Shown here: piece by piece, positions 11,016 through 60,288 of the stretch | Numbering within the stretch: position 1 is the first letter of the stretch | Layout of the letters: each line of letters starts with the position of its first letter | Assembly (NCBI GenBank): GCA_041665385.1 | Contig: JBAYIX010000003.1 | Coordinates: 13,128 to 77,127, forward strand | DNA length: 64,000 nt | Source of the DNA: Minisyncoccota bacterium | GTDB lineage: Bacteria > Patescibacteriota > Minisyncoccia > Phycocordibacterales > PALSA-1337 | Reading direction: 5' to 3' | Program-made: the position numbers and the translations under genes | Notes under the pieces: model-generated | The model's input: only the letters and a program-made list of their open reading frames with translations | Databases searched by the model: none | What the model was told of the DNA's origin: nothing

Positions 11016-11057
11016 TTATGTAAAATATTGGCGAAGTGAAAGATCGCCGAAACCAGA

Positions 11058-11414: not shown

Positions 11415-11571
11415 GATTGCCCCTAATTATACTCGAAAAGTCATAGAAATACGCATGAAAACTGTGCATAACTCGGAGAGTTCCTTCCTACGCCAAGGCT
11501 TCGGAAGGCAAGTCAATCTCACAGAACACGCACTGTTTGCAAAAAAGTCTTAAATATGCGATATTAGTCCC

Positions 11572-11796: not shown

Positions 11797-11854
11797 TTTG
11801 TAACCGTTGGCCAGAACTGGCCAAATTTAGAGAATAGTTCTTTAACGCAAAATT

Positions 11855-12754: not shown

Positions 12755-12771
12755 ATTAAGAATCAGGAATT

Positions 12772-13470
12772 ATGAAACCTACTACAGAATCTTTCGAAAA
12801 ACGTATTGGTGTGAAGTTTGATGACGCAAAGCTGTTGCGTTCTGCTGTGACGCATCGTTCCTACCTGAATGAAAATAAAAAAGTAGATCTGGAACACAAT
12901 GAACGTCTGGAATTTTTGGGAGATGCTGTTCTCGAACTGGTCGTGACTAGTTATCTATTTCGCAAATATACCAAGAAGGCCGAGGGCGAGCTCACGGCAT
13001 TTCGTTCTGCTCTGGTGAATACTGTGAGTCTGACCAAAGTCGCAGAACATATCGGTCTCAATGAATTTCTACTCTTGTCGCGCGGTGAAGCCAAGGATAT
13101 CGGACGTGCACGTTCGGTAATATTGGCAAATGCCGTGGAGGCTGTCATAGGAGCGATATATCTCGACCAGGGTTACAATGCTGCGGCAAACTTTATTGCG
13201 GATCATCTGTTGAATACTATAGACATAGAAGAGATAATAAAGAACAAGACCTGGATAGATGCCAAGAGCCGTTTCCAGGAAAAAGCCCAAGAAAAAGCAG
13301 GTAAGACTCCTTCCTACAAGACGCTCAAAGAGGCCGGACCTGACCATGACAAAGTTTTTACTCTGGGGGTATTTTTGGGAGATGTGCAAGTGGCCACAGG
13401 TAGTGGCCCATCCAAGCAGGAAGCGGAACAAAAAGCCGCGGAAAAGGCACTAGAAGTCAAAGGTTGGTAA
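12772..13470 (+). CDS. rnc: ribonuclease III
   Basis: ERLEFLGDAVLELVV signature plus a C-terminal dsRBD. Confidence 0.9.
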   Translation: MKPTTESFEKRIGVKFDDAKLLRSAVTHRSYLNENKKVDLEHNERLEFLGDAVLELVVTSYLFRKYTKKAEGELTAFRSALVNTVSLTKVAEHIGLNEFLLLSRGEAKDIGRARSVILANAVEAVIGAIYLDQGYNAAANFIADHLLNTIDIEEIIKNKTWIDAKSRFQEKAQEKAGKTPSYKTLKEAGPDHDKVFTLGVFLGDVQVATGSGPSKQEAEQKAAEKALEVKGW

Positions 13471-17311: not shown

Positions 17312-17349
17312 CATTATTAGGGCCTGTATATGTGATGCCCACCTTTTTT

Positions 17350-17457
17350 CCCAGCAAGGTTGTGCGGGCTTTTTCCTTCATTTGAAATATTTGTGCAGGG
17401 TCCGAGTATTGTAAACACTTCACAAATGAAGGAAAAAGCCCGCACAACCTTGCTGGG
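17350..17457. repeat. perfect 35-bp inverted repeat with a 38-nt loop carrying the core TGTGCAGGGTC
   Basis: Arms 17350-17384 and 17423-17457 are exact reverse complements. The loop contains ttTGTGCAGGGTCcgag. Both Met-ORFs across the region (17145..17498 -, 17360..17566 +) are mirror artifacts of it. Confidence 0.85.
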
Positions 17458-17827
17458 AGGTGAACGTAGCTCAATAAACATTTTCTTCCATACAGCACAA
17501 CAACCCGCTTTGGCGGGCTGTGTGCATAATGGTTACTCGCAATCGGAGATAGATCGCAAATTTTAAGTGGTGTCCGTTTCCGACGCTAGGCGTGGAATTT
17601 TTTTTGGACCCTATATTTTATGAGTTAAGGATCATCTCCATCATTGGTAACCTGTATTAAGGATATTATTTTTGGTCGCAAAAGTCAAAGGAAAAAGGGG
17701 CCTTTTTCTGGGGTTTAGCTGTGCACAAACTGTGCATAAGTTCACTTTTTCTGTGGACAGAGATTTATCACACAAAACGATGCACTGTGCAATACTTTAC
17801 AAGCATATCCTTGGCTTCCGGAATCTT

Positions 17828-20104: not shown

Positions 20105-20230
20105 ATTATAGCATGCACGCTCTTATTCTTACTCAAAAGCAGGGCTCTAGTGAGCCACGGTATTGGATGTCAAATGGTGGCTCAGTGACAACGTAGAATG
20201 AACGAAAAATAAGAGCGTGCGTGCTATAAT
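20105..20230. repeat. 23-bp inverted repeat (one U-G compensated position) enclosing a nested 8-bp hairpin, in the leader of the FAD oxidase gene
   Basis: attatagcaTgcacgctcttatt at 20105-20127 versus the reverse complement of 20208-20230 (c/t difference gives a U-G pair in RNA). Inner TGAGCCAC/GTGGCTCA at 20151-58 / 20177-84. Confidence 0.7.
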
Positions 20231-23341: not shown

Positions 23342-24571
23342 TTAGTTTGTATCCTTGATAGATAGTGCGGGGATGACTGCTGTGAGGCAGATCACTCCTA
23401 TGATGACGAACAAGTACTGGTTTGTTGTGAACATTAGACCAACAATAGTGATGAGAGGAGCGATGAAAAGGGAAACTGGCCTGGTGATACGGAATACACC
23501 CAGAGCGGCGGCATCGCGTGGTGAAACCGTTTTGAAAAAGTAAGACTCTATCATGACTTCGACCGAAGCCGCTCCGATACGGGTGATGAATAGCACTAGA
23601 GCCCAGAGAGCGACATTTGGAATATTTATGAAAGCGAGGAATATGGTAGCAATGCCCATGATGACGAAACCAAGAGCCATTATCTCTTTTTCGCCGTATT
23701 TTTCGTCCGCTATTTTACCCAAGGGGTATTGGATCAGAGGGAATGGTAGAAGCATGATAGTGAGTATGAGTCCGATATCGAACCAGCTGAAGCCCATGGT
23801 CTTATTCAAGTATATGGGGCTATACACAACCATCCAGGAATAAAAGACTTGAAGTATGATGTTCGCACTAAAAAGTTTGACCCAGTTTTTGTTGCCACCG
23901 ATATGCTTTACCAGCTGGACAGGGGAGAGATGGATATAGTTCGGGTCCTTGAAGCGGGGGAAGTTGCGGTATATGAGGTAGAGGAATGGTAGGAGCATGA
24001 GGAGTGCCGCAAAGAAAGTATTCCTATAGTTACCTGTACTACCTATGAGCATACTGCCGATGAGGGGGGCGATGAGCCATGAGGCATTGAGGGAGGCATT
24101 GTAGAGTCCGCGAACTTTACCGATGTGGACACTATCTGTATATACCTCTAGGAAGATGTCGAGAGTAAGACCAATGAGGGCGGACACTGCGAGCTGAACC
24201 ATAAAGAATGTCGCAATGACGGTGGGTGATGCGGAAAAGAACAAGCCTATGAAGAGTATTATCTGAATGCAGATAAGGACAACTGAGGTTTTGTAGTTGC
24301 CGTATCTACGTATGAAAGATGGTGCGATGAGGAAGCCGAGTATGGAAACGGCTCCGCCTACCATATAGATGAGGCTGACTATTCTCTCGCTGCCAAATTC
24401 GCTTAGGAAGCTGGAGTTGGAATACATAGGGAGGACTATGTGGAGCGCATATATGAAACCGATAAGAGCTATGGTGTAAATGACGTTACTCTTGGGGAGA
24501 TCACGAGAAGAACTGATTTGCATATGGGGTATTATAACATGCAGTTTGTTTTCGGAACCTGGGCATAGCAC
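23342..24571 (-). CDS. MFS transporter
   Basis: About 12 TM helices. Signature loop GRYGNYK-like between TM2 and TM3. Confidence 0.75.
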   Translation of the reverse strand: MLCPGSENKLHVIIPHMQISSSRDLPKSNVIYTIALIGFIYALHIVLPMYSNSSFLSEFGSERIVSLIYMVGGAVSILGFLIAPSFIRRYGNYKTSVVLICIQIILFIGLFFSASPTVIATFFMVQLAVSALIGLTLDIFLEVYTDSVHIGKVRGLYNASLNASWLIAPLIGSMLIGSTGNYRNTFFAALLMLLPFLYLIYRNFPRFKDPNYIHLSPVQLVKHIGGNKNWVKLFSANIILQVFYSWMVVYSPIYLNKTMGFSWFDIGLILTIMLLPFPLIQYPLGKIADEKYGEKEIMALGFVIMGIATIFLAFINIPNVALWALVLFITRIGAASVEVMIESYFFKTVSPRDAAALGVFRITRPVSLFIAPLITIVGLMFTTNQYLFVIIGVICLTAVIPALSIKDTN

Positions 24572-24747
24572 ACAGCAAATCCTCTCTTTTGAGAAGTGTT
24601 TACGGTCCGATAGCTTTGCACTGCTATTCCAAAAGAGAGGATTTGCTGTGTGCTATGCCCAGGTTCCGCGCGAGTAAAAAAAGATGTTAATATTTGTGAA
24701 CAAATTGCAGTTGCATTTTACCTCAAATGTGGTATGATTATGGCACC

Positions 24748-27063: not shown

Positions 27064-29169
27064 CTAAATCATCAAAATAACCGGAATAACCATCGGCCTT
27101 TTCGCCGTCTTTTGCAGAAGGAAATGGCTCACAGCATCTGATATCGTATCTTTCACGAAGTCCACATTGATAGGATTCTGTCCCTTCGTTGCTTTTTCTG
27201 CCGTATCCTTTATGAGTAACCGCACCTCGTGGAGGAGTTCCTGAGATTCACGCAAGTATACGAAACCACGGGAGATAATATCCGGAGACTTTTTGAGTTT
27301 GCCTGTAGAAATATTTATGATACCAAAGATGATAAATATTCCATCCTGAGCCAGCATCTGTCGGTCGCGTATAACCACATCCTGCACATCGCCCACGGAG
27401 AAACCGTCCACGAGTACAAGACCGGAAGGAGCCTTTTCTTTTAGCTTCACAATGCGTTGTCCTCCTCCTTGGATCTCGATGATGGAACTATTGTCCGGTA
27501 TGACCACGTCTTCCTCCTTGAGATTGTTCGCCTCCTTTGCCACATCTCCGTGTACGCGGAGCATGTAGTGATAGCCGTGCAGAGGCATGAAGAACTTGGG
27601 ACGGATCTTCCTGTGTATCCACAATGTTTCGTCTTTGTACGCGTGACCTGTAGAGTGCACTTCTGCTGTACGGTAGTGGACTATTTTGGCACCTTGCCTC
27701 GATAGATTGTCCTTGAGCTTTTGCACAGCGCGTTCATTGCCAGGAATAACCGAAGACGAGAGGATGACCGTGTCGCGAGGAGTGATCTTGACCTTGGCAT
27801 GAGTGCGGTTTGCTATGCGCATGAGGGCGGCAAATTCGTCACCCTGTGCGCCGGTAGCGAGGATCACGATCCTATCCGGAGGGTAGTTGTCCATATCATC
27901 GGAAGAGATGATGGTCTCGCTCTTGGCTTTGAGGAGTCCTAGGTGTTTGCAAATCTCGATATTTTGTTTGAGACTCCTGCCTTCGATCACGACTTTCTTG
28001 CCATAGAGCTCGGCGAACTCTACCATCTTGAGCAGGCGCTCTAGGAGGGAGGAGAACGTGGCGATGATGAGGCGACCAGTGGAATTCTTTATATATTGCT
28101 CTAGGTTTTTGTGGACTATCTTTTCAGGTATGGAAAAGCCAGGTATCTCTACGTTGGTCGAGTCTGCCATGAGCATGAGTACTTTTTCATTTTTGAACGC
28201 ACGGTCGTATTCGGCTTCTTCTTCTGGTGTGGCGACACCATCTATGTGGTCCATCTTTAGGTCGCCGGTGTGTACTATAGATCCCCAAGGAGTTTGTATG
28301 ATGAGTCCCATGGCATCGGGAATGGTATGAGTCACTGCGAAGAACCGTATCTTGAAAGCGCCGACGCTTATGGTCTCATTTTTTTCAACTATGCGTATGT
28401 CCAGCTTTGGCAGGTGGGGAAATTCTTCTTGTCTCTTGTTTATGAGGACCGAGCTCAACATGCGGGTATATACTGGCGGGTTGCCGATGCGGGGCATGAT
28501 ATACGGTATACCTCCAATATGGTCGAGGTGGCCGTGTGTGATGATAACGGCTCGGACCTTGTCTTGTCTCTCTTCTAGATACTTTGTATTTGGTAATATG
28601 TAGTCGATACCAGGTGTATTTTCGTCTCGGAATTGGAAACCAATGTCGACAACGAGGATATCATCGCCAAATTCTATAGCGGTCATGTTGCGGCCGACTT
28701 CCTCAACTCCGCCCAACGGAACGATGCGGATAGAATCTGCAGCCAATGGTGGTATGGTATCGCCATGAGTGTCTTTGGACTGAGGGGAAGCAGAAGGTCG
28801 TCTCCTCGCTGGCTTGGTCATTTCTTTCCGCATGACATTCATGCGCGCGCCGGCCACATGACGGGTGGCAGTCGGCCTAGCGGGGACATTTCCATCCATA
28901 GTATGTCGAGCTCCACGACCCATGACTATGCGGTGACCGGTTATGTTCGAACTGTTGCTATTGTAATTTCTTGCTACTGGAACTGGGGATGCAGATGCTA
29001 CTGGAACAGCATTGATAGAAGATGGGACAGTTGACCCGGTATCTGTACGCAAGGTACGTGTAGGAGTAGGACGGGAAAAAGGTCGTCTACGGAAAGGTGG
29101 TCTACTGTCGCCCTGTGAAGGACGGCTGGCGGAACTGTCGGACTGAGAATTGTTTTGATTGTTATTCAT
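27064..29169 (-). CDS. rnj: ribonuclease J (metallo-beta-lactamase/beta-CASP) with a roughly 150-aa low-complexity N-terminal extension
   Basis: HGHLDHIGG motif, beta-CASP and the C-terminal domain. The N-terminus is Ser/Pro/Arg/Thr-rich and disordered. Confidence 0.85.
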   Translation of the reverse strand: MNNNQNNSQSDSSASRPSQGDSRPPFRRRPFSRPTPTRTLRTDTGSTVPSSINAVPVASASPVPVARNYNSNSSNITGHRIVMGRGARHTMDGNVPARPTATRHVAGARMNVMRKEMTKPARRRPSASPQSKDTHGDTIPPLAADSIRIVPLGGVEEVGRNMTAIEFGDDILVVDIGFQFRDENTPGIDYILPNTKYLEERQDKVRAVIITHGHLDHIGGIPYIMPRIGNPPVYTRMLSSVLINKRQEEFPHLPKLDIRIVEKNETISVGAFKIRFFAVTHTIPDAMGLIIQTPWGSIVHTGDLKMDHIDGVATPEEEAEYDRAFKNEKVLMLMADSTNVEIPGFSIPEKIVHKNLEQYIKNSTGRLIIATFSSLLERLLKMVEFAELYGKKVVIEGRSLKQNIEICKHLGLLKAKSETIISSDDMDNYPPDRIVILATGAQGDEFAALMRIANRTHAKVKITPRDTVILSSSVIPGNERAVQKLKDNLSRQGAKIVHYRTAEVHSTGHAYKDETLWIHRKIRPKFFMPLHGYHYMLRVHGDVAKEANNLKEEDVVIPDNSSIIEIQGGGQRIVKLKEKAPSGLVLVDGFSVGDVQDVVIRDRQMLAQDGIFIIFGIINISTGKLKKSPDIISRGFVYLRESQELLHEVRLLIKDTAEKATKGQNPINVDFVKDTISDAVSHFLLQKTAKRPMVIPVILMI

Positions 29170-31187: not shown

Positions 31188-31355
31188 TTTCGACCCTGCC
31201 GCACTCTCTTCCCTCGACTGCGGATTCACTCGTCACATCTCGGCATTTCCACAAACTGTGCCCTGCAAGGATTCGGTCACAGTTTGGGAAATGCATCGAG
31301 ATCTGACTTCGTGAAGAGTCCTCGCCTTCGGGAAGAGAGTGCGGCAGGGTCGAAA
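31188..31355. repeat. perfect 26-bp inverted repeat flanking a 116-nt structured spacer in the secG-groES divergent region
   Basis: tttcgaccctgccgcactctcttccc at 31188-31213 versus the exact reverse complement at 31330-31355. Inner near-palindrome ccacaaactgtg ... cacagtttggg. The arms contain GCACTC / GAGTGC hexamers. Confidence 0.8.
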
Positions 31356-44693: not shown

Positions 44694-44915
44694 ATGAATG
44701 GACACCTATCCGCACAACTTCCCCCGCTTTTGGTAGAATACGCAGATCAGTTGCGCGGGGAAGTCGTAGGAGAAAAGAATAGGTACTTTACCGGAGAAAA
44801 ATTTCAGCATTCTCCGGATACTACCGAGTGTCGGTTTCACCACCTCGTTTGGGGTGGACTTCAGAGATTTCACGAGCATTTCAAAACATCCCATTTGCTT
44901 CGGGGTGGTACCTGA
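44694..44915 (+). CDS. small hypothetical protein (73 aa)
   Basis: AGGAGG RBS 7 nt upstream of ATG 44694. Terminator at 44926-44955. His/Gly-rich. Confidence 0.3.
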   Translation: MNGHLSAQLPPLLVEYADQLRGEVVGEKNRYFTGEKFQHSPDTTECRFHHLVWGGLQRFHEHFKTSHLLRGGT

Positions 44916-44925
44916 AGCTTAGGAC

Positions 44926-44955
44926 CGGGTGGGTACGAGTGTACCCGCCTTTTTT
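44926..44955 (+). terminator. Rho-independent terminator
   Basis: GGTGGGTAC-GAGT-GTACCCGCC (one U-G pair), then TTTTTTA. Confidence 0.55.
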
Positions 44956-44986
44956 ATATTGGAATACTTTTGGCTATTCTGGTAAC

Positions 44987-46084
44987 ATGCGGATCATGAT
45001 CAGTCAAAAGGGTAAAAAAGTATATGTCGGTCTTTCCGGTGGCGTAGATAGCGCCGTTTCCCTGGCTTTGCTGCAAAAAGCCGGATATGACGTTACGGGA
45101 GTCTTTATAAAGGTTTGGCAACCCGACTGGATAGAATGTAGCTCGAGAGAAGATCGTCATGACGCTATGAGGGTTGCGGCGCATCTGAATGTGCCTTTTG
45201 TCACTCTGGATTTGGAAAAGGAATATAAGGAAGGAGTGATAGACTATATGATATCGGAGTACAAGGTTGGGCGTACGCCAAATCCGGATGTGATGTGCAA
45301 TAGAGAGGTAAAATTTGGTGCTTTTTGGAAATGGGCAAAAAACAATGGCGCAGATTATATTGCGACTGGACATTATGCGCAGGTGACACCAGACCGGAAA
45401 ATGCTTATGGGCAATGATTCGAACAAGGATCAGACATATTTTTTGTGGACTCTGGAGAGGTCGGACCTCTCCCATGTTCTATTTCCCGTGGGACATTTAC
45501 CAAAGCCAGAGGTGAGAAAGCTCGCAAAAAAGTTCCACCTACCAAATGCCGTAAAGAAGGATAGTCAAGGATTGTGTTTCATCGGCAAGATCGATGTAAA
45601 GGATTTTTTGAGGCATTACATAAAGGAACAACCTGGCAATGTTCTCGATAATAAAGGAAAAATAATAGGCTTACATACTGGTGCCTTGCTCTATACCATA
45701 GGCGAGCGTCACGGTTTTGAAATATATTCAAAAACGCCAAATGATACTCCCTACTATGTCATATCAAAGAATGTTGAACAAAATACAATCACAGTTTCAA
45801 ATAAAAAAGACAATGATATCTTGCCTGGTGGCAAGAATGAAGTGGAGTTGGAAAAAGTAACCTGGGTATCTGGTAAACCTCCAGAAGGCAATCATGTTAT
45901 TCATAGCTTTCCATTCCAGACTAGGAGCAGGTACAGACAAGAATTGCAGAATGTTCGAATAATATCTGCGAGCGATGGTAAAGCAAAAATTGAGTTTGAA
46001 AACATTCAGGATACTCTCACACCAGGTCAGTCTCTTGTGATATATAAAGATGAGGAATGTCTGGGTGGAGGAATAATATTATAA
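44987..46084 (+). CDS. mnmA: tRNA-specific 2-thiouridylase MnmA
   Basis: PP-loop SGGVDS, catalytic Cys pattern. Start reset to the ATG at 44987 (MRIMISQKGKKVYVGLSGG). Confidence 0.85.
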   Translation: MRIMISQKGKKVYVGLSGGVDSAVSLALLQKAGYDVTGVFIKVWQPDWIECSSREDRHDAMRVAAHLNVPFVTLDLEKEYKEGVIDYMISEYKVGRTPNPDVMCNREVKFGAFWKWAKNNGADYIATGHYAQVTPDRKMLMGNDSNKDQTYFLWTLERSDLSHVLFPVGHLPKPEVRKLAKKFHLPNAVKKDSQGLCFIGKIDVKDFLRHYIKEQPGNVLDNKGKIIGLHTGALLYTIGERHGFEIYSKTPNDTPYYVISKNVEQNTITVSNKKDNDILPGGKNEVELEKVTWVSGKPPEGNHVIHSFPFQTRSRYRQELQNVRIISASDGKAKIEFENIQDTLTPGQSLVIYKDEECLGGGIIL

Positions 46085-46103: not shown

Positions 46104-46949
46104 ATGACAAATCCAGTCACAGTCACGAAAAACGATGGAACCAAGCAGGTATTCGAAGAAGAGAAGCTCATCCAATCTCTAAAAAGAGTGCATGCGCCGG
46201 ATGAAGCCGTAGCAGACATTGTGGACCAGATCGGTAGAGAAATGCATGACGGCATAACAACTACGGAGATTTATGCCAGAGCTTTTGAACTTCTGAAAAA
46301 ACATTCTCATCATGCCGCTCTGAAATACTCCATAAGAAGGGCGATATTTGATCTGGGGCCCGATGGTTTCCCATTTGAAAAGTTCGTTGCAAGAATATTC
46401 AATGTTTGGGGTTACGAAGCTGTTACCGACCAGATAGTCATGGGTGAATGTGTTTCTCACGAAGTGGATGTGGTTGCTTGGAAAGGTGATGAGCTCGCCA
46501 TGGTTGAGGCAAAATTTCACAACGAATTTGGCATGAAGTCGGATCTCAAGGTTGCGTTGTACATCAAGGCGCGGTACGACGATCTTTCTATGAATGTTTA
46601 TGATTTTGGAGGTAGAGAACGCAAACTCTCGGGCCGTTGGCTGGTCACAAATACAAAGTTTACGGACAAGGCGATCATTTATGGCGAATGCAAGAAGCTC
46701 AATCTCATAGGCTGGAACTATCCGGCGCAAAATAGTCTGCATGACATTATCGAAAAATATACTCTTCATCCAATCACATCCCTTACCTCGCTTACTAGTC
46801 AGCAAAAGAAAGAGCTTGTGAATAGGGGGGCGATCATTTGTTCGGATCTGGTGAAGAATCCACAACATTTGAGGGATATTGGTGTGCATGAGGATATGAT
46901 AGAAAAGATCATTCATGAGTCGGAGGCGATCGCACAGCTTTCAAAGTAG
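46104..46949 (+). CDS. ATP-cone domain fused to Mrr-type PD-(D/E)xK restriction-endonuclease-like domain
   Basis: N-terminal VTVTKNDGTKQVFEEEKLIQSLKRV ... is ATP-cone-like. C-terminal GYEAV ... EVDVVAW ... VEAKFH is the Mrr_cat D ... (D/E)xK motif. Confidence 0.65.
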   Translation: MTNPVTVTKNDGTKQVFEEEKLIQSLKRVHAPDEAVADIVDQIGREMHDGITTTEIYARAFELLKKHSHHAALKYSIRRAIFDLGPDGFPFEKFVARIFNVWGYEAVTDQIVMGECVSHEVDVVAWKGDELAMVEAKFHNEFGMKSDLKVALYIKARYDDLSMNVYDFGGRERKLSGRWLVTNTKFTDKAIIYGECKKLNLIGWNYPAQNSLHDIIEKYTLHPITSLTSLTSQQKKELVNRGAIICSDLVKNPQHLRDIGVHEDMIEKIIHESEAIAQLSK

Positions 46950-47123
46950 TTTTGTAGGCACCAGTCAAGAGAAGCCCTTCGGGACACGCCGTCGGTGCCT
47001 GCTGGCACCGCGGCTGGTTCTCGGCCGCCTACGCGGCCTCCGAAACGTCCCTCAGAGCTTTCTCTTGACCGGTGCCTTTCCACACCACTTCAATTATTTG
47101 TGCGGTCGTTATAAAATGCACTT

Positions 47124-47720
47124 ATGCCAGACAAAACAGAAAAAATGAAAGTCATTCACGACGAGATCACGGCTCTCAAGGAGTCTCCGCTATATGAATA
47201 CCGCACGACCAATAATTATTTCCCTGTAATAGGCGAGGGTAGTCTCACAGCAAAGATTATGTTCGTGGGTGAAGCTCCAGGCAGGAATGAGGCAAAGACC
47301 GGAAGGCCTTTTTGTGGTGCGGCGGGGAAGGTGCTGGATAGTCTATTGGGGCATGTAGGCATCGAACGTCAGTTTATTTATATAACTAACATAGTGAAGG
47401 ATCGTCCGCCAGAGAATAGAGATCCAACAGCGCGAGAGATAGAAGTTTACGGCCCATTCCTGGACAGGCAGATAGAGATTATACAGCCTCATGTCATTGC
47501 GACCTTGGGTAGGTATGCTATGGGCTATATTATGGGTAGGTTTCATCTCGGAGAGAAGTTGGAACCGATAGGTGAAGCTCATGGGAAAACATATAAGGCG
47601 AACGCGAGCTATGGAGATATCGATATTGTGGCGCTTTATCACCCGTGTGTGGCGGTTTACAATCCGAATAATATTGGCAAATTAAAAAAGGATTTTGAGG
47701 TGCTGAAGGCATATTTTTGA
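47124..47720 (+). CDS. uracil-DNA glycosylase, family 4
   Basis: GEAPGRNEAKTGRPFCGAAGKVLD motif A, plus the HP motif near the C-terminus. Confidence 0.85.
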   Translation: MPDKTEKMKVIHDEITALKESPLYEYRTTNNYFPVIGEGSLTAKIMFVGEAPGRNEAKTGRPFCGAAGKVLDSLLGHVGIERQFIYITNIVKDRPPENRDPTAREIEVYGPFLDRQIEIIQPHVIATLGRYAMGYIMGRFHLGEKLEPIGEAHGKTYKANASYGDIDIVALYHPCVAVYNPNNIGKLKKDFEVLKAYF

Positions 47721-47816
47721 CAAAAGAATTAATTCTTATAAATATAGAAACGGGCACATAGATGTCTTTTCAAATAAAAAGCTGACGAAATAGACACAAA
47801 ATGCTATATTTCATGC

Positions 47817-49661
47817 ATGAAATCACAAGAGATAAGGTCGCGTTTCCTAGCTTTTTTTGAGAAGCGCAAACACGTCATCATACCTTCTGCTTCGCTCGTC
47901 ACCTCGGACGAAAAGGGAGTTACAGACAGCACACTCTTTAACGCCGCAGGCATGCAGCCACTCGTGCCATATCTCCTGGGCAAGCCACACCCTATGGGCA
48001 AGCGCCTGGCAAATGTACAAAAAGTCCTGCGCACAGTAGACATAGATGAGATAGGCGACAATACCCATGCGACATTTTTCGAAATGTTGGGAAACTGGTC
48101 ACTGGGAGACTATTTCAAGGAGGAAGCCATAAACTGGAGTTATGAATTTCTGACTTCAAGGGAGGAGGGTCTTGGTTTGGATCCTGAACGACTTTACATA
48201 ACCGTCTTCGAAGGCGATCACAATGCCCCAAAGGACGATGAAGCTGCAAATATATGGCGCAAGATCTATTCTGATAATCATCAGGAAGTAGAAAAAGAGG
48301 AAAAATCCCGGATATTTTTCATGCCGGCGAGCTCGAACTGGTGGCAAGCGGGTGAAAATGGACCCTGTGGACCGGATACTGAGATGTATTATGATATCGG
48401 TAATAAATTTGCTGGCAAGCATATCACCAAGGAACAATTCCTCGATGCCGACTCGAAGCGAGAAGTCGTGGAGATCTGGAACGACGTTTTTATGCAATAT
48501 GAAAAAATTGATGGCAAGATAGTGGGTAGTCTGCCAAATCCTTCCGTAGATACCGGGGCGGGGCTCGAACGCGTAACCATGACGATGCAAAATGTATCAA
48601 ACATTTATGATACCGATCTTTTCCTGGACATCATGTCGGTGACCAAAAAATGGTCAGGCGACCGAAAGAGTCAGAGAATCATAGCTGACCACATCCGTGC
48701 TGCGGTTTTCCTCATTACCGATCGTGTCGTGCCTTCCAATACCGATCGGGGCTATGTACTTCGTCGTTTGATAAGAAAGGCGATATTTCACACGGACAAA
48801 AAAAGCATAAATGAAGAGGGTATTGACGAGCTCATAGATGCGGTCATAAGGATATATGGAGATGCATATCCAGATCTTTCCGCGAAAAGCCCTGCTACAA
48901 AGAAAGTCCTAGCAGATGAATCTGCAAAATTCACCCATGCGTTGGAAGAAGGAAGTAAAGAATTTGAAAAGCTCGCGACCGCAAGTGTATTTGAAGATAT
49001 GAAAATATCTGGAAAAGATGCCTTCATGCTCTTTTCTTCTTACGGACTGCCCATAGATATGACGGTAGCACTGGCAAAAGAAAAAGACTTGATTGTGGAT
49101 GTAAATGGTTATAACGATGAATACAAAAAACATCAGGAGCTTTCGCGCGCGGGCGCAGAGAAAAAGTTCAAAGGCGGACTCTCCGATGTTTCCGATGAGA
49201 TGGTACTCCGGTATCATACCGCTACACATCTCTTGCATCAGGCTCTCCATGACGTGCTCGGCCCGGGTGTGATGCAAAAAGGCTCCAATATAACGCCGGA
49301 GCGTTTGCGTTTTGACTTTGCCCACAGCACAAAGATGACAGAACAAGAAAAGATGAAAGTAGAAAATATTATCAATGAAAAAATAGCTGCAGCCCTGCCT
49401 GTGAACAAGGTTATCATGTCGAGGGAAAAAGCCGAAAAAACTGGTGCAAAACATTTCTTCGGAGAAAAATATGGCAGTGAGGTATCGATATATTTCATTG
49501 GTGATACGCTAGATCGGGCGTATTCAAAAGAATTTTGCGGAGGTCCGCATGTAGAAAACACGAACCATCTCTCCGGTCCGGAAGGTAATTGGCGCTTCAA
49601 GATCACAAAAGAGGAAGCCGTCGCACAAGGTATACGTCGCATAAAGGCGGTTTTGGTATGA
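47817..49661 (+). CDS. alaS: alanine--tRNA ligase (catalytic + editing domains; C-Ala domain absent)
   Basis: N-terminal class II aaRS AlaRS motifs (FNAAGMQPL). Editing-domain HxxxH (HTATHLLHQALH). 614 aa. Confidence 0.9.
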   Translation: MKSQEIRSRFLAFFEKRKHVIIPSASLVTSDEKGVTDSTLFNAAGMQPLVPYLLGKPHPMGKRLANVQKVLRTVDIDEIGDNTHATFFEMLGNWSLGDYFKEEAINWSYEFLTSREEGLGLDPERLYITVFEGDHNAPKDDEAANIWRKIYSDNHQEVEKEEKSRIFFMPASSNWWQAGENGPCGPDTEMYYDIGNKFAGKHITKEQFLDADSKREVVEIWNDVFMQYEKIDGKIVGSLPNPSVDTGAGLERVTMTMQNVSNIYDTDLFLDIMSVTKKWSGDRKSQRIIADHIRAAVFLITDRVVPSNTDRGYVLRRLIRKAIFHTDKKSINEEGIDELIDAVIRIYGDAYPDLSAKSPATKKVLADESAKFTHALEEGSKEFEKLATASVFEDMKISGKDAFMLFSSYGLPIDMTVALAKEKDLIVDVNGYNDEYKKHQELSRAGAEKKFKGGLSDVSDEMVLRYHTATHLLHQALHDVLGPGVMQKGSNITPERLRFDFAHSTKMTEQEKMKVENIINEKIAAALPVNKVIMSREKAEKTGAKHFFGEKYGSEVSIYFIGDTLDRAYSKEFCGGPHVENTNHLSGPEGNWRFKITKEEAVAQGIRRIKAVLV

Positions 49662-49673
49662 TATAATTCGTTC

Positions 49674-50831
49674 ATGTTTTTCTCTGAAAAAAAAGAAGAC
49701 AGGGTTATCCTTCTCATATCCGTGCAGAGCTCCATGGTTCGCGGTACGCTCGTACGCGACAGAGCTGGTGAACTCCCTCTAGTCATGTGGAGTTCGAGCA
49801 AAGCTATCCGCCATAGGGAAGATGCCGATGCGTCCTATTTACCAAAAGCCACTTTTACTCATGTTCGGAACCTATCGGAAGAAATAGCGAGGGATTACGA
49901 AGCTTATCGGCATTCAGATCCGAGCCTGCCCGCCTATATAGAGGAAGTGCATTATGCCCTTGCTTCGCCGTGGATATTGTCTCATGCACTTACATTATCG
50001 AAGAAATATGACAATGCGGTTCCGGTATCAGAAAAAATGATTCTGACAATAATATCCGATGCCCGATCAAAATTCCTACCCAAAGACGCAAAGGAACTTG
50101 CTATTGTCGAAGAAAAAATATTCGATATCCGATTGAACGGCTATTCCATATCGAGTTGGCAGGGAAAGACCGCACATTCGCTCGAAATATCGTTTGCAAC
50201 CAGCGCGATAGAGATCAAGACCGAAGAAAAATTCCGAGAAGCATGCGGGCATATCGTCCGTGGCAACAATATCTTCTTCCATTCCTCCTTGCTCCTGCAC
50301 CATATCGGCCTACAGCATATATTTCCCGAAAAAGTGAGTTATGTCCTCGTGCATGTTCACGGCGAGCTCACCGACGTTGTAGTTGTGGAAAACCGCATGT
50401 GTACTTTCTTCGGCTCATTCCCCATGGGTATCAATACTGCCATTCGACAGATCGCTCTTTCGGCAAATGTGACAGAACAGGTTGCGGACTCCATGCTCAC
50501 GATGTATATCGGCGGCAGGATGGATACAGCAGAGAAGGAAAAGACACGTGTCATCATCGAAACTATTTCGGCAGAATGGAATGCTCAGTTTGCAAACCTG
50601 ACAGGGGGATACCTGTCCGACGAGCACTTGCCGGAGACGGCTATCTTGACATCTAGGAGTCACGAGGCTTTTTTCGTGGAGAGCTATAAAAAACATTTTG
50701 AAAAGAGCAAAGTAGAGCTCATATCAACAGAAATGCTTTCTGGTTTCATTTCGTTTGCACCCAAAGTGGAGAAGCTCCGGCTCACGGGACTATATTCCAT
50801 AGCCTTGACTATCCTTCATAAACGATTATAA
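49674..50831 (+). CDS. hypothetical protein, possibly actin-like ATPase fold (FtsA/PilM-like)
   Basis: VILLISVQSSMVRGTLV and VLVHVHGELTDVVVVEN resemble phosphate-1/phosphate-2 motifs of the ASKHA superfamily. Weak. Confidence 0.3.
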   Translation: MFFSEKKEDRVILLISVQSSMVRGTLVRDRAGELPLVMWSSSKAIRHREDADASYLPKATFTHVRNLSEEIARDYEAYRHSDPSLPAYIEEVHYALASPWILSHALTLSKKYDNAVPVSEKMILTIISDARSKFLPKDAKELAIVEEKIFDIRLNGYSISSWQGKTAHSLEISFATSAIEIKTEEKFREACGHIVRGNNIFFHSSLLLHHIGLQHIFPEKVSYVLVHVHGELTDVVVVENRMCTFFGSFPMGINTAIRQIALSANVTEQVADSMLTMYIGGRMDTAEKEKTRVIIETISAEWNAQFANLTGGYLSDEHLPETAILTSRSHEAFFVESYKKHFEKSKVELISTEMLSGFISFAPKVEKLRLTGLYSIALTILHKRL

Positions 50832-50841
50832 AGTACATATT

Positions 50842-52920
50842 GTGGACAAATCTCTATTTACAATATCTACCAGCATGAAGCCTGCTGGCGACCAGATAAA
50901 TGCCATAAAGCTGATTAGAGAAGGCTTGGAAAAAGGCATGGACCGCCAAACACTCCTGGGCGTGACCGGTTCCGGCAAGACATTTACCATGGCAAATGTC
51001 ATAACCCATTACGGAAAGCCCGCACTTGTGATAGCTCATAACAAGACGTTAGCCGCTCAGCTAGCGCAAGAATATAGGGCTTTTTTCCCCAACCATGCCG
51101 TGCATTATTTCGTATCTTACTATGACTTTTACCAGCCAGAGGCATATATACCGTCGACGGACACATATATAGAGAAGGAGGCTATGATCAATGAAGAGAT
51201 CGAGCGTTTGCGACATGCCTCTACGCAGGCGCTCTTGACTAGGAAGGATGTCATCATCGTCGCGTCGGTATCCTGTATATACGGTTTGGGTAGCCCTGTC
51301 GAATATGAAAAAGTAAATATGAAGCTATCGGTGGGGGCGGATATCTCTCGTGCAGAACTCATAAGAAAGATGATCGGCATACATTTCGTCCGGACAAATG
51401 CCGATCTCAAGTCTGGCCAGTTCCGTGCCCTAGGTAACATGGTAGAAGTCATGCCTGTGAATGATCGAACACTTTATCGTATCGCTTTTGACGAAAAGGG
51501 TATACAAGCTATAACAGAGATAGATCCTGTGAGTCATAGTTTGCGTGCCTCACATGAGACAGTTTTCATCTTTCCTGCGAAGCACTTCATAAGCAATGAT
51601 GAGCAGACGGCGAAAGCTCTCGAAACCATAAAGATCGAGCTTGCTCAGCAGTTAAAGGTTCTGGAAAAAGAGGGAAAGATGTTGGAGGCAGAGAGGCTGA
51701 AGAGGCGTGTGAAATATGATCTCTCTATGATAAAGGAGATAGGTTATACCAATGGCATAGAAAATTATTCCAGGCATTTTTCGGGCAAGACGCCGGGTGA
51801 GCCGCCGGACTCACTCCTCTCGTATTTTCCTCATGACAAAAATGGCAAAGCAGATTTCCTCACGGTCATAGATGAGTCTCATGTCACCGTACCGCAACTA
51901 AACGGCATGTATGCAGGAGACGCTTCGCGCAAGGGTACACTCATAGAGCATGGTTTCCGACTGCCATCGGCGAAGGATAATAGACCGCTCAAATTTGACG
52001 AATTTCTGGAGAGGGTGGGACCTATCGTCTTTACTTCTGCAACCCCGGGAGAGTATGAGAGGAAAAACTCACAGCAAATAGCTGAGCAGGTCATACGCCC
52101 GACAGGACTCGTAGATCCTTTGCTCGAGATAAAGCCGGTCAGTGCTGATGTTGGTCTTTCTTCATCGGAAGGGGGCAAATATCCCGGTCAAGTCTATGAC
52201 TTTATCCGCGAAGCGGAAATGACGATAAAGAAAGGTGATCGCGTGCTCGCTACAACTCTTACAAAAAAGATGGCGGAGGATCTGGCGGAGTTTCTAAAAG
52301 AAAAAGGTATGAAGGCGAATTTTCTTCATAGTGATGTAAAAACTATGGACCGCATCACGACGCTCACAGACTTTCGCCGTGGCAAATATGAATGTCTGGT
52401 TGGTGTAAACCTGCTCCGAGAAGGACTGGACCTACCGGAAGTATCGCTCATAGGTATACTTGACGCAGACAAGGAAGGATTTCTACGGTCGGAGACATCA
52501 CTCATACAGACTATTGGTCGCGCGGCTCGCAACTCTGCTGGTAGAGTCATCTTGTATGCTGATAGGAGGACTCCCTCTATGGAGAAGGCAATATCTGAGA
52601 CAGAGCGTCGAAGGAAAAAGCAGACAGCATACAATGTCGAGCACGGTATCACTCCTCTCACGATAAAAAAAGAAATACACGATATCACCGATACTATCCG
52701 GTCTGAGCACGAGCTTGCGGTGAATGAGATCGCTAAAATAGACGAAGAACTGGCGAAAACAAATCCAAAATTACTCCTGCGTAACAAAGAAGAGCAGATG
52801 TCCGATGCAGTGAAGGAGCTCGACTTTGAGACGGCGGCTCTCATTCGTGACGAGCTTATTTTGCTTCGTCGGAAATATGGTCTGGAAGATAAACCCAGAA
52901 GGAAAAAGAAAGGGCAGTAG
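50842..52920 (+). CDS. uvrB: excinuclease ABC subunit B
   Basis: Canonical UvrB along the full length (GVTGSGKTFT, beta-hairpin, C-terminal UVR domain). Confidence 0.95.
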   Translation: MDKSLFTISTSMKPAGDQINAIKLIREGLEKGMDRQTLLGVTGSGKTFTMANVITHYGKPALVIAHNKTLAAQLAQEYRAFFPNHAVHYFVSYYDFYQPEAYIPSTDTYIEKEAMINEEIERLRHASTQALLTRKDVIIVASVSCIYGLGSPVEYEKVNMKLSVGADISRAELIRKMIGIHFVRTNADLKSGQFRALGNMVEVMPVNDRTLYRIAFDEKGIQAITEIDPVSHSLRASHETVFIFPAKHFISNDEQTAKALETIKIELAQQLKVLEKEGKMLEAERLKRRVKYDLSMIKEIGYTNGIENYSRHFSGKTPGEPPDSLLSYFPHDKNGKADFLTVIDESHVTVPQLNGMYAGDASRKGTLIEHGFRLPSAKDNRPLKFDEFLERVGPIVFTSATPGEYERKNSQQIAEQVIRPTGLVDPLLEIKPVSADVGLSSSEGGKYPGQVYDFIREAEMTIKKGDRVLATTLTKKMAEDLAEFLKEKGMKANFLHSDVKTMDRITTLTDFRRGKYECLVGVNLLREGLDLPEVSLIGILDADKEGFLRSETSLIQTIGRAARNSAGRVILYADRRTPSMEKAISETERRRKKQTAYNVEHGITPLTIKKEIHDITDTIRSEHELAVNEIAKIDEELAKTNPKLLLRNKEEQMSDAVKELDFETAALIRDELILLRRKYGLEDKPRRKKKGQ

Positions 52921-52995
52921 GACAATTTTAGAGCCGTTTTTTCTATATACCTCTGTTATCAACACCCCTCCCGTGAAGTATGCTAAAATGGTGCC

Positions 52996-53790
52996 ATGCA
53001 ATCAGACAATAAAGTAGTTTGTAGTGGACAGAAGATAGTTGTGATCACCAATGATGCCGCTTTTGGTGACAATATACACAACAAGCTCGTGGAAATAGGC
53101 TATGAAGTAAAGCTTCTAAAAGAGGGTAATGAAGGCCTGAAAGCTATGTATGATGTGTTGCCGCATTTGGCTCTCATAGATGTCGATGTTCCCGGCCTAT
53201 CAGGGTATGATATTTTGGAAAAGAAGCAGGCGGAACCTCTCCTCGCAAAGATCCCTGTATTTCTCATGTCAACACAGGGTGTGCCCATAAACATGCGTCG
53301 CGTGCCGGAAGGTAGTGTGAACGAGTTTATTGTCTCGCTAAAGGCAGATGTGGAAGATGTCAGTAACCGAGTAAACAAACATTTTGGTTGCGTACCAAAA
53401 TCCAATCAGGCGAAAACTGGCGAAGTCAAAAGGATATTATGGGTAGAAGATGACAAACTCATAGGCAGCATACTAGGCAAGAAACTAATATCGTCTGGCT
53501 TCGACTTGGTACATGCCAAGAATGGTGAAGAGGCGATGAAAGAGCTAGAACAAACTATTCCCAACGCTATGATGATAGACCTTTTGTTGCCTGGTATGAC
53601 AGGCTTTGACATATTACAGAAAGTTCGCGACAACCCCCGGTACAATGATCTTCCGATAATGATCCTCTCTAACCTGAGCAAGCCGGGCGATATAAATCGT
53701 ACAAAGGTATTGGGTGCCCAGAAATTCCTCGTAAAGGCGACCGCTTCACTCGACCAGATCATCGCCGAGGTTCGCAATTTGGCGAAATAG
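52996..53790 (+). CDS. response regulator with two tandem receiver domains and no output domain
   Basis: REC1 has the phospho-site IDVDVPG but ND instead of the DD pair. REC2 is fully canonical (VEDD, MIDLLLPG, ILSN, K). Confidence 0.75.
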   Translation: MQSDNKVVCSGQKIVVITNDAAFGDNIHNKLVEIGYEVKLLKEGNEGLKAMYDVLPHLALIDVDVPGLSGYDILEKKQAEPLLAKIPVFLMSTQGVPINMRRVPEGSVNEFIVSLKADVEDVSNRVNKHFGCVPKSNQAKTGEVKRILWVEDDKLIGSILGKKLISSGFDLVHAKNGEEAMKELEQTIPNAMMIDLLLPGMTGFDILQKVRDNPRYNDLPIMILSNLSKPGDINRTKVLGAQKFLVKATASLDQIIAEVRNLAK

Positions 53791-53816
53791 GAAAAATGTG
53801 CTAAAATCCTCCCGTC

Positions 53817-56468
53817 ATGCCACACAAGCGGGAAATAAAAATAAAGAGCGGTGCGAAGGTGCCGGAGGATAAGATAATAGTGAAGGGTGCGCGCACCCAC
53901 AACCTCAAGAATATTACGGTTGAGATGCCCCGAAACAAAATGATAGCCATTACTGGTCTGTCTGGTTCGGGCAAATCTTCGTTGGCCTTTGACACGATAT
54001 TCGCAGAAGGTCAGCGTCGGTACATAGAGTCTCTCTCCGCTTATGCCAGGCAGTTTTTGCACAAGATGCAAAAGCCCGATGTCGATGAGATCATTGGGCT
54101 TTCTCCTGCTATAGCTATAGACCAAAAATCTCGTTCCAACAACCCTCGCTCGACCGTGGCCACCATCACAGAGATATACGACTATCTCCGTATACTTTTT
54201 GCACGTGTGGGGAAGCCACACTGTCTGGTCTGTAATAGGCCCATACACCGCATATCCAAAGAAGAGATCATGGATACTATAATAAAGACTGTGCGAGAAC
54301 GGACAACTAGAGCAAAGAAAGTCTTTGGTGTGGATGTTACAGATGCCAAGGTTACTATATATTCTCCGGTCGTTGTGGGTAGGAAAGGTGAATATTATCA
54401 ACTTTTGTATGACCTTCTCGGCAAAGGTTATGACCGTGTGCGAGTGGACGGCAAAACATTCCGACTCAGGGAACAGATCATTCTAGAAAAGAATAAAAAG
54501 CACGATATCGATGTTCTCGTGGATGAAATATTTGTAAGCGAAATAAAAGATGCAAAAAAAGGTGACAATGCCCGTGAGCGACTCTCGGAGTCTTTGGAAC
54601 GTGCCATTTTGGAATCCGAAGGACTCATAAAGATCGCATATCCGGGCGGTGCAGAAAATAAAGAGCAAAAAAACGAGCACGAGCTGCCTAGTAATGAAGT
54701 TCTCATGTCGGTAAAGTTTATGTGCCCGTATGACGGATTTTCCTACCCGGAAATAGAGCCGAGATTATTTTCTTTCAACTCTCCATATGGAGCTTGTCCC
54801 GCTTGTAATGGTCTCGGCACGGAAAGTATCTTTTCCGATGATCCTTGCAAGACTTGCAAAGGTAAACGTCTCCGCGAAGAAGCCTTGCATGTACTTATCG
54901 GTGATAAGAATATTGTTCATATCACGGAGCTTTCTATAGAGCATGCTGTGGCATATTTTGACACTTTGGTCCTCACACCTGGAGAGAGGGAGATAGCAAA
55001 GGTGGTCCTGAAAGAGATCGGTGCACGTCTTTCATTTATGGTAAATGTGGGAATAGAATACTTGACCCTGAACAGGAGAGCGAACACTCTCTCTGGTGGA
55101 GAGGCACAACGTATCCGTCTGGCTTCTCAGCTGGGTTCTGGGCTCGTGGGCGCTCTCTATGTCCTCGATGAGCCTACGATAGGTCTGCATCAGCGTGACA
55201 ATGACAAACTCATAGGTACACTCCTCCATCTCCGGGATATTGGGAATACCATAATCATTGTGGAGCATGACGAGGATACAATGTATGCCTCAGACTATAT
55301 TATCGACATTGGGCCAGGGGCTGGAGTCCATGGCGGGGAAGTTGTGGTCTCCGGATATTTGGAGGATCTGCTTACTGCAAAGACCAACCACAGTGATTCT
55401 CTAACCTTGTCATATCTGCGTGGAGAAAAGAAGATAGAACTTCCTGGAGAGAGACGTGCCCCCAAAGGTAAAATCATGATCCGTGGGGGGAATATTTTCA
55501 ATATAAAAGATCTCAATGTCGATGTACCATTGGGTAGTCTAAATGTCATTACCGGTGTTTCCGGTTCCGGTAAATCTTCCTTTATGTATGAGATTCTATA
55601 CAGGAATCTCCAGGCGAGGCTCGAGCCTGCTCATAGGAGTAATGAAGTAGTAAATGCAAAGGAATTTAATGGCACAGAATATCTGGGTCGAGCAATACTC
55701 ATAGACCAGTCGCCAATAGGTAGGACGCCACGTTCCAACCCTGCTACATATACCGGAGCCTGGACGCATATCCGTGACCTCTTTGCTTCCGAACCAGAAG
55801 CCCGCGCTCGTGGCTGGGGACCGGGTAGATTTTCATTCAATAGGCCTGGTGGACGCTGTGAAGCGTGTGAGGGTAATGGCGAAATAGCTGTGGAGATGCA
55901 CTTTTTGCCAACTGTCTATGTCACTTGTGATGTCTGCAATGGCACGAGATTTATGAAAGAAACTTTGGATATAAAGTACCGCAAAAAGAATGTGCATGAA
56001 GTGCTGGAAATGACTATAGAAGAAGCTCTAAAATTTTTTGTTGATATACCTGCAGTAGAAGATAGGCTCCAGACTCTTTTAGAAGTTGGTCTCGGTTATG
56101 TGAAGATCGGTCAGGCGGCGACGACGCTTTCGGGTGGAGAAGCACAGCGTGTGAAGATATCATCTGAGCTATATCGTCCTCATGTGCAAAAGAGTATATA
56201 TCTTCTAGATGAACCGACGGTGGGACTGCACTACGAAGATGTGAAGAAGCTTATTGATATTTTGCAAAAGCTGGTGGATAAAGGGAATACGGTGGTGGTT
56301 ATCGAACATAACCTAGATCTCATAAAGAGTGCGGACTATGTTATAGATATCGGCCCGGAAGGTGGTGAACGTGGGGGGAAGATCGTGGCAAAGGGGACAC
56401 CAGAAGATGTGGCGAATAATCCGAAGTCATTTACGGGGCAGTATTTGAAGAAGGTGCTGAAGAGGTAA
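53817..56468 (+). CDS. uvrA: excinuclease ABC subunit A
   Basis: Two ABC modules and Zn fingers, canonical. 883 aa. Confidence 0.95.
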
Positions 56469-60168: not shown

Positions 60169-60175
60169 AATAGAA

Positions 60176-60279
60176 AACTGGGGCACACACATGTTTTTTC
60201 ATGAAAAGTGAGAAGATGTGCAGGGTCAACGTTCGAGGCAGTTCTACTTTTCATAAAAAAACATGTGTGTGCCCCAGTT
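60176..60279. repeat. 34-bp inverted repeat (one mismatch) with a 36-nt loop carrying TGTGCAGGGTC, 10 nt upstream of tRNA-Ala
   Basis: Arms 60176-60209 / 60246-60279. The loop gagaagaTGTGCAGGGTCaacgttcgagg shares an 11-mer with the loop of the 17350 hairpin. Confidence 0.8.
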
Positions 60280-60288
60280 TTCTCTCGC

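Follow-up and report, generated by a model that had tools for sequence, protein, structure and literature searches.

A gene at positions 46104 to 46949 of the plus strand of a 64,000-nucleotide (nt) stretch of Minisyncoccota DNA (assembly GCA_041665385.1, contig JBAYIX010000003.1; hereafter the window) almost certainly encodes a three-domain protein, in which an N-terminal ATP-cone is joined to an AF1548/Mrr-type nuclease and to a C-terminal domain of the helix-hairpin-helix (HhH) type. The architecture goes beyond chance because 4054 homologues were recovered at E≤1e-3, among them an NCBI protein 100% identical to the product of this open reading frame (ORF) and named 'ATP cone domain-containing protein [Candidatus Paceibacterota bacterium]', and because residues 93-275 match AF1548 of Archaeoglobus fulgidus (PDB 1Y88) in a phmmer search with E=2e-27. 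The AF1548 family is already catalogued in Pfam, NCBI and the PDB, and the window gene is, judged by its sequence, the Paceibacteria orthologue. We give an even chance to the view that the protein is an adenine-nucleotide-gated endonuclease serving nucleic-acid turnover and salvage, or energy stress, and not restriction.

Gene and domain architecture

The ORF starts with an ATG, begins 19 nt past the stop codon of mnmA and encodes 281 residues followed by a stop codon, exactly as given in a preliminary description of the window. The complete gene (46104..46949, +) was assigned as an ATP-cone/AF1548-like nuclease/HhH-type domain protein on the basis of the ORF itself, its homologues and an AlphaFold2 model, the latter computed with 54 homologues as input and reaching a mean predicted local distance difference test (pLDDT) of 87.3 and a predicted template modelling (pTM) score of 0.82. 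Residues 1-83 form the ATP-cone (46104..46352, +; PF03477, Foldseek, hhalign and conservation), which is followed by the cone-nuclease linker L84-G85-P86-x-G88-x-x-F91-E92 (46353..46379, +; conservation in 411 sequences), by a PD-(D/E)xK nuclease core at residues 93-210 (46380..46733, +; 1Y88 match, Mrr_cat, conservation and Foldseek) and by a C-terminal AF1548-like helical domain of the HhH type at residues ~211-281, which together with the stop codon spans 46734..46949 (+; PF22357, 1Y88 and the model). The preliminary description had counted two domains, a cone and an Mrr-type nuclease; both calls were right, and the third domain, AF1548-like_C/HhH, was overlooked. An antisense ORF of 245 residues (46179-46916, -) lies wholly within the nuclease gene and is most likely a shadow ORF; public gene calls and homology are all on the plus strand.

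The ATP-cone

ATP-cones are the ATP/dATP-binding switches of ribonucleotide reductases (RNRs) and of NrdR, and we know of no experimental ATP-cone studies beyond these proteins. The Pfam profile PF03477, which had been proposed as a check on the N-terminal cone, passed its threshold at residues 6-75 with 33.2 bits (gathering score 25.8; E=7.8e-8). The cone motif announced earlier is present as V7-T-K9-N-D11-G12-x4-F17-x3-K21, the gap from the glycine to the phenylalanine being of four residues and not of three. The NrdR equivalog TIGR00244 scored 12.6 bits against a cut-off of 124.65, in the cone region only and with no Zn-ribbon. A cone-only sequence search of the PDB returned no match, the domain being detected by Pfam, hhalign and Foldseek only.

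The modelled cone shows the expected β-hairpin lid (strands 6-8 and 14-16) and four-helix fold (helices 19-28, 33-46, 53-67 and 69-83). Foldseek against the PDB superposed it on the NrdR cones of Escherichia coli and Streptomyces coelicolor with a root-mean-square deviation of 1.4-1.7 Å over 80-84 columns, and RNR cones were also among the PDB matches for the N-terminus. All conservation figures refer to an alignment of 411 full-length members from the Candidate Phyla Radiation (CPR), Bacteroidota and archaeal groups, in which K9, G12, K21 and Y75 are kept in at least 97% and F17 and T53 in 94% of the sequences, while position 78 is occupied by Lys or Arg throughout the three groups.

Alignment of the cone with that of E. 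coli NrdR by hhalign gave E=0.0029 with a probability of only 10.6%, and the residue mapping is therefore tentative: K9 corresponds to K53 of NrdR, F17 to F61, K21 to K65, L22 to L66, T53 to S105 and I56 to I108. These residues of NrdR are reported to cover the adenine, to make a hydrophobic pocket and to touch the γ-phosphate (bioRxiv 10.1101/2025.03.28.645925). The earlier query whether the nucleotide pocket is intact can be answered from the model, whose fold fits the NrdR cones, and from the family-wide retention of the contact residues; we consider the pocket to be intact and predict that it binds ATP/dATP. The numbering of the E. coli NrdA cone, which we take to be K9, K21, T55, F87 and K91, is near-identical.

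The linker and the nuclease core

The linker connects the last cone helix straight to the first nuclease helix. Its residues G85, P86, G88, F91 and E92 are kept in at least 97% of the 411 sequences and are invariant in alignment A1, a near-invariance across CPR, Bacteroidota and Archaea from which we infer that the linker may be a rigid coupling element.

The order of secondary-structure elements in the model fits the α-β-β-β-α-β core of PD-(D/E)xK nucleases. Five acidic or basic residues, E92, E120, D122, E135 and K137, are conserved in 100% of the sequences, with the catalytic codons located at 46467-46469 (D122), 46506-46508 (E135) and 46512-46514 (K137), and further core residues noted were Y153, R157, D160, N183 and the conserved C116/C196. 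D122, E135 and K137 align with D38, E51 and K53 of AF1548, which were predicted to be catalytic in the Global Ocean Sampling (GOS) study, where AF1548 received only a 'restriction endonuclease' prediction (PMC1821046). The Pfam family Mrr_cat (PF04471) matched residues 88-140 with 21.1 bits against a gathering score of 21, covering only positions 6-58 of the 115 in the profile; a precomputed Mrr_cat match is present in many close homologues and absent from many others. PDB entries matched by Foldseek include the PD-(D/E)xK nuclease domains of the ligand-gated Can2 and Cdn1, of the uncharacterised VC1899, and of MspJI and McrC.

The strings on which an Mrr-type nuclease had been proposed (G103-YEAV, D122 and E135-A-K137) were all found, and that proposal holds at the level of the Mrr_cat/PD-(D/E)xK superfamily; within it, the protein belongs to the AF1548 family and is devoid of the N-terminal DNA-reading domain of Mrr. 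Very probably the product of 46104-46949 is an active nuclease, and the idea of nucleotide-regulated cleavage fits the predicted intactness of both cone pocket and catalytic triad. Also within the nuclease domain, C116 (46449-46451) and C196 (46689-46691) are Cys in at least 97%, and H119 (46458-46460) and H139 (46518-46520) are His in at least 90%, of sequences across bacteria and archaea; these four residues may form a metal or redox site.

Relationship to AF1548 and the C-terminal domain

A family-profile search of the PDB returned 1Y88 as the sole match (E=1.1e-37), and Foldseek aligned the model with AF1548 at E=2.2e-14 and a template modelling score of 0.77 normalised to the target. The C-terminal domain, composed of five helices in the model, aligns residue by residue with 1Y88 up to residue 275. 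AF1548-like_C (PF22357) scored 21.7 bits at residues 223-276, under its gathering score of 23.9, and HHH_5 (PF14520) was also scored by one archaeal homologue. HhH-type domains usually bind duplex DNA.

Full-length archaeal relatives of AF1548, of 261-280 residues, carry the ATP-cone, Mrr_cat and AF1548-like_C together. One of them, a 265-residue Archaeoglobus protein (P0271; L032, 6001-6798), has an N-terminal ATP-cone and is 99% identical to the crystallised AF1548 over the aligned part. Because such full-length relatives carry an N-terminal ATP-cone, the crystallised 199-residue AF1548 chain is seen to start after the cone, and the original AF1548 gene model was probably N-terminally truncated in the same way as the 1Y88 chain. 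From these sequence comparisons, the three-domain layout is taken to be the normal, ancestral state of the AF1548 family.

Size and distribution of the family

Clustering at 90% identity leaves more than 4000 clusters in the family. In a 50%-identity library, matches at E<1e-30 fell in 447 clusters; of the 150 representatives listed for them, nearly all are ~275-290 residues long and match over their full length. Members were found in Patescibacteria (Paceibacteria and Taylorbacteria), Bacteroidota (Cyclobacterium, Fulvivirga, Fulvitalea, Pontibacter, Saprospiraceae and Flavobacteriaceae), Chlamydiota (Criblamydia) and archaea (Archaeoglobi, Hadesarchaea, Aenigmarchaeota and Nanoarchaeota), DPANN archaea among them. 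NCBIfam and PHROGs searches gave nothing specific for the protein, and the searchable literature yielded no characterisation of an ATP-cone combined with a restriction endonuclease, Mrr, nuclease or anti-phage function. AF1548 represents a large family, housekeeping-like in Paceibacteria, whose cone-less structure has been solved since 2004 without an assigned function. The names 'restriction endonuclease' and 'Holliday junction resolvase', under which genes of the family are annotated, are unsupported.

Genomic context in Paceibacteria

The flanking genes named in the preliminary description, mnmA and a family-4 uracil-DNA glycosylase (UDG), were both borne out. The tRNA 2-thiouridine synthase gene mnmA (44996..46084, +; NCBIfam MnmA 400 bits, cut-off 284) ends upstream of the nuclease gene across the 19-nt gap, and the UDG gene (47124..47720, +; TIGR00758 184 bits, cut-off 125) lies downstream. 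The mechanically called mnmA ORF opens at a GTG at 44828 (44828-46084, 418 residues), and the ATG at 44996 (362 residues) suits the public gene calls and the MnmA profile as the start of mnmA. Within ±6 kb the genes encode an ArsR-type regulator, a 2-hydroxyacid dehydrogenase, pyruvate kinase, dihydroorotate dehydrogenase and phosphoglycerate mutase, followed by mnmA, the nuclease gene, the UDG gene, alaS, a hypothetical gene and uvrB. A run of repair genes extends downstream over 47124-56468, with the family-4 UDG gene, uvrB (50842-52920) and uvrA (53817-56468), and is broken up by alaS, by a 385-residue protein without a family match and by a response regulator.

Synteny and identity were compared in 20 species-level genomes of relatives, whose nucleases are 54-71% identical. 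The mnmA gene was directly upstream in 20/20 of them, with a gap of at most 74 nt in 15 and of ~7 nt in four, and UDG and alaS were usually next on the other side, the UDG gene being downstream in 12 of the 20 loci and within 70 nt in six. Mean identities over the 20 species were 60.3% for the nuclease, 60.5% for MnmA and 61.2% for AlaRS, and the G+C content of the nuclease gene equals that of its neighbours. Because of this fixed synteny, MnmA/AlaRS-level conservation and matching G+C content, the nuclease gene looks like a vertically inherited chromosomal core gene with a housekeeping or stress function.

Neighbourhoods in other lineages

In Cyclobacterium, in Pontibacter and on a Criblamydia plasmid, the nuclease gene is the first of a four-gene operon of co-directional, closely spaced or overlapping genes (L025, 6001-10755; L116, a Pontibacter plasmid, 1972-6597; L117, the Criblamydia plasmid, 9001-13608). 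It is followed by genes for a nuclease with metallo-β-lactamase (MBL), β-CASP and RMMBL domains, for a thymidine-phosphorylase-family protein of ~500 residues and for a ribose-phosphate pyrophosphokinase (Prs), and the operon is surrounded by genes for universal stress protein (Usp), Hsp20, phosphofructokinase, phosphoketolase and acetate kinase. Neighbours were counted in 80 metagenomic loci fetched with a Bacteroidota profile. A β-CASP gene started at most 400 nt downstream in 32 of the 71 loci with enough sequence, the phosphorylase gene was found downstream in 10 and the Prs gene in 8 of the 39 loci whose downstream sequence reached 5 kb, and a Usp gene lay directly upstream in 17 of 58 loci. 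The co-directional clusters around these loci contain several Usp paralogues, Hsp20, phosphofructokinase, a protein like glyceraldehyde-3-phosphate dehydrogenase and 2-hydroxyacid dehydrogenase, and also MgtC, P-type ATPases and PAS kinases with response regulators.

The adjacent Bradyrhizobium diazoefficiens genes bll3115-3117, which correspond to the last three genes of the operon (MBL-fold hydrolase, ribose-phosphate pyrophosphokinase and thymidine-phosphorylase-family protein), are induced by microoxia alongside Usp genes (PMC6515984). As a whole, these gene contexts suggest a module that recycles nucleotides and is linked to stress or energy; in two bacterial phyla the ATP-cone nuclease is attached to it. 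Archaeoglobi neighbours were MscS/DUF432, CorA and an amino-acid permease fused to Usp. On an Archaeoglobi-like contig (L119, 3163-4807), a complete restriction-modification pair of the MjaI type (N6_N4_Mtase and RE_MjaI) stands divergently beside the AF1548-family gene. The pair seems to have been inserted independently, separating that gene from the MscS/DUF432 genes that usually adjoin it.

Proposed mechanism and alternative roles

In the mechanism that we propose, the cone would sense ATP/dATP, and perhaps ADP or AMP, through K9, F17, K21, T53, Y75 and K/R78, and nucleotide binding would, as in the cones of RNRs and NrdR (PMC9110341), alter the conformation or the oligomeric state. The change would pass through the rigid linker that ends in E92 of the catalytic helix and switch cleavage on or off. 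Cleavage itself would take place at a metal-dependent (Mg2+-type) PD-(D/E)xK active site, on duplex nucleic acid that the HhH-type domain at the C-terminus would grip without sequence specificity. The outcome, and the most likely biological role, would be a breakdown of nucleic acid controlled by nucleotide or energy status and leading to salvage or recycling. We lean towards gating of the nuclease by nucleotides as somewhat probable, and infer DNA to be the substrate. A role specifically in salvage, which for the Paceibacteria gene would be transferred by analogy from homologues that are 39-44% identical, is put forward tentatively and with more doubt than confidence.

Several observations weigh against an adenine-nucleotide-gated nuclease of turnover and salvage. 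The operon-bearing homologues of other phyla are only 39-44% identical to the window protein, the Paceibacteria neighbours are mnmA, UDG, alaS, uvrB and uvrA and not the nucleotide-metabolism operon, and no β-CASP-type, phosphorylase or Prs homologue of that operon was found in the 64-kb window, which encodes a single related enzyme, a canonical RNase J (27064-29169, -). The role may differ between phyla because the neighbourhoods differ between them, and the local context of UDG, uvrB and uvrA equally allows a role in repair. The substrate could be RNA or branched DNA. With respect to ligand specificity, position 10 of the cone is Asn here and variable across the 411 sequences, this position being presumably Arg in E. 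coli NrdA. Lastly, experimental characterisation of any AF1548-family member was not found in the searchable literature.

The standalone defence nuclease suggested in the preliminary description found no support. A Type IV (Mrr-like) restriction enzyme or an anti-phage nuclease acting alone, either of them set off by a shift in the nucleotide pool, would agree with the Mrr_cat score at the gathering threshold, with the name 'restriction endonuclease' borne by homologues in several sources and with a fold like that of the nuclease domains of MspJI, McrC and Can2. However, the sole match in PADLOC-DB was PDC-S02 with E=0.011 and 13 bits, none of 50,697 phage records matched the nuclease, and the two matches among 72,556 plasmids (Pontibacter and Criblamydia) both fall within the metabolic operon. 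No Pfam match to Mrr_N (at E≤1) or to another modified-base reader domain was obtained, and the co-occurring methyltransferase that had been proposed as a check was absent within ±6 kb of the gene. Fixed synteny, housekeeping-level conservation across the 20 species and the nearly uniform full length of the listed representatives also depart from a patchy, island-borne defence pattern, and we regard restriction or defence as very improbable. A structure-specific endonuclease of DNA repair or recombination, acting on flaps, junctions or apurinic/apyrimidinic- and uracil-repair intermediates and licensed through its ATP-cone by deoxynucleoside triphosphate/ATP status, would account for the nuclease and HhH layout, which parallels that of XPF/Mus81/Hef, for the downstream UDG gene of Paceibacteria (in 12/20 loci, six of them within 70 nt) and for uvrB and uvrA lying 4-7 kb downstream in the window. 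Many homologues are named 'Holliday junction resolvase(-like)' by the Joint Genome Institute (JGI), a few also match Pfam Hjc, and genes for a purine DNA glycosylase and a DHH nuclease lie near the family member in one DPANN locus. Yet a separate Hjc is encoded 2 kb away in Geoglobus, the adjacency to UDG is confined to one bacterial class and often interrupted, the partners conserved across phyla are genes of nucleotide metabolism and not of repair, and XPF, Mus81 and Hjc are absent from the top 50 Foldseek matches; a repair nuclease is, in our judgement, unlikely.

If the nuclease fold and the HhH domain merely bound DNA and the cone controlled oligomerisation on operators, the protein would be a nucleotide-sensing regulator like NrdR, in which a cone coupled to a DNA-binding domain works as a repressor (PMC9110341); its cone is structurally closest to NrdR cones, and JGI gives one homologue the name 'transcriptional regulator NrdR family protein'. 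The complete conservation of E92, D122, E135 and K137 would be unexpected for a domain that only binds, though, there is no Zn-ribbon, and RNR genes were not seen adjoining in any inspected neighbourhood, so that we find such a regulator very unlikely. An RNA-directed nuclease for the processing or turnover of tRNA or rRNA, coupled to MnmA in Paceibacteria, is suggested by the position of mnmA directly upstream in all 20 loci, with the ~7-nt gap in four, and by the RMMBL 'RNA specificity' domain of the Bacteroidota partner. That linkage is, however, limited to one class and absent from the Bacteroidota, Chlamydiota and Archaea loci inspected, and may be merely an inherited gene order; the general preference of HhH-type domains for duplex DNA also speaks against RNA, and we hold this role to be highly improbable.

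A broader extension of the turnover and salvage reading is that the AF1548 family constitutes an unrecognised class of metabolic nucleases, in which an RNR-type ATP/dATP switch on a DNase or RNase would let cells meter, by their adenylate or dATP status, how much (deoxy)nucleotide is set free from nucleic-acid polymers; we offer it as speculation and consider it rather unlikely. If it were true, nucleotides in Bacteroidota and Chlamydiota would be recycled by an operon linked to hypoxia or dormancy, in which the nuclease would act first and be followed by the β-CASP exonuclease, the nucleoside monophosphate/nucleoside phosphorylase and the phosphoribosyl pyrophosphate (PRPP) synthetase, and in the genome-reduced, salvage-dependent Paceibacteria the nuclease would have turned into a core gene. 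With a cone fused to an intact nuclease by an invariant linker, the allosteric switch of ATP-cones would be extended to nucleic-acid degradation, and the β-CASP/phosphorylase/PRPP synthetase operon provides a concrete, testable hypothesis for the function of the family.

Structured intergenic elements of the window

The GC-rich structured element reported immediately downstream of the nuclease gene is real and was placed at 46956..47077 (strand not assigned), between the nuclease gene and the UDG gene, as a nested palindrome recognised by its fold z-score and as inverted repeat I10. It has 66% G+C, outer arms of 18 nt with 94% complementarity and a pair of inner hairpins, and folds better than shuffled controls on both strands (z = -8.7 on + and -9.2 on -). 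Identical in three independent assemblies of this population, the element is missing from 20/20 related loci, where the UDG gene can start after 10-18 nt. It matched no Rfam family, whether at gathering score or with the limit relaxed to E≤5; it contains no tRNA or tmRNA and no terminator-like T-run or promoter, and occurs as a single copy in the 64-kb window, its inner hairpin having no exact match in viral contigs. A conserved cis-regulatory partner or a UDG riboswitch was rejected on these negative results, and a miniature inverted-repeat transposable element (MITE) on the lack of a recognisable target-site duplication and the single known copy. The element is a lineage-specific insertion and not part of the conserved context of the nuclease gene.

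Three intergenic hairpins of ~110-116 nt were found elsewhere in the window, at 17349-17458, 24553-24668 (core on the minus strand) and 60172-60283. Their 36-39-nt arms are near-perfect (two pairs 100% and one 97% complementary) and unrelated in sequence between copies, and their central loops of ~36-38 nt are common to the three and alignable, with a consensus of about GAAtAgnTGTGCAGGGTCAnCGtAtTGTAAACACTTC. The hairpins thus keep their loops, whereas MITE and repetitive extragenic palindromic (REP) elements keep their arms. The core motif was not in any of the 117 fetched loci, and Rfam returned only sub-threshold, generic hairpin matches for the three; a microRNA precursor at 17349-17458 was discarded, the Rfam matches being far under gathering scores and reflecting a generic hairpin shape only. 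Two further intergenic inverted repeats were noted, at 31188-31355 (26-nt arms, 100% complementary, with a nested inner palindrome) and at 20105-20230 (26-nt arms, 92% complementary).

Comparison with known systems

AF1548 itself shares ~34% identity in the structural alignment and the D-x12-E-x-K and TNTKF motifs with the window protein, but the 199-residue crystal chain is cone-less, and the cone-nuclease interface is accordingly absent from the structure. The likeness to NrdR lies in a cone that superposes at 1.4-1.7 Å, in retained nucleotide-contact positions and in the coupling of the cone to a nucleic-acid-binding module. NrdR acts by nucleotide-driven oligomer switching (PMC9110341). 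It differs from the protein described here in that its cone is C-terminal and not N-terminal, and in the Zn-ribbon, which the window protein lacks; the latter has instead a catalytically intact nuclease partner, and no RNR genes nearby. With Mrr and Type IV enzymes the protein shares a PD-(D/E)xK core that scores Mrr_cat at threshold, but the Mrr_N winged helix and a defence-island context are absent here, where the gene is non-mobile and conserved at a housekeeping level.

XPF, Mus81 and Hef consist of an ERCC4 restriction-fold nuclease followed by an (HhH)2 DNA-binding domain. The same succession of a restriction-fold nuclease and a helix-hairpin-helix domain is seen here, but with no match in sequence or among the top 50 structures, and XPF/Mus81/Hef have no ATP-cone. 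Can2, Card1 and Cdn1 resemble the window protein in the fusion of a nucleotide sensor to a restriction-fold nuclease, and nuclease domains of this group are among the top Foldseek matches. Their sensors, however, are CARF or SAVED domains recognising cyclic oligoadenylate, whereas the sensor here is an ATP-cone predicted to recognise the primary metabolites ATP/dATP, and there is neither a CRISPR nor a CBASS (cyclic-oligonucleotide-based anti-phage signalling system) context. By analogy, the protein may be described as a ligand-gated PD-(D/E)xK nuclease of the Can2/Card1 type equipped with a sensor of the NrdR/RNR type.

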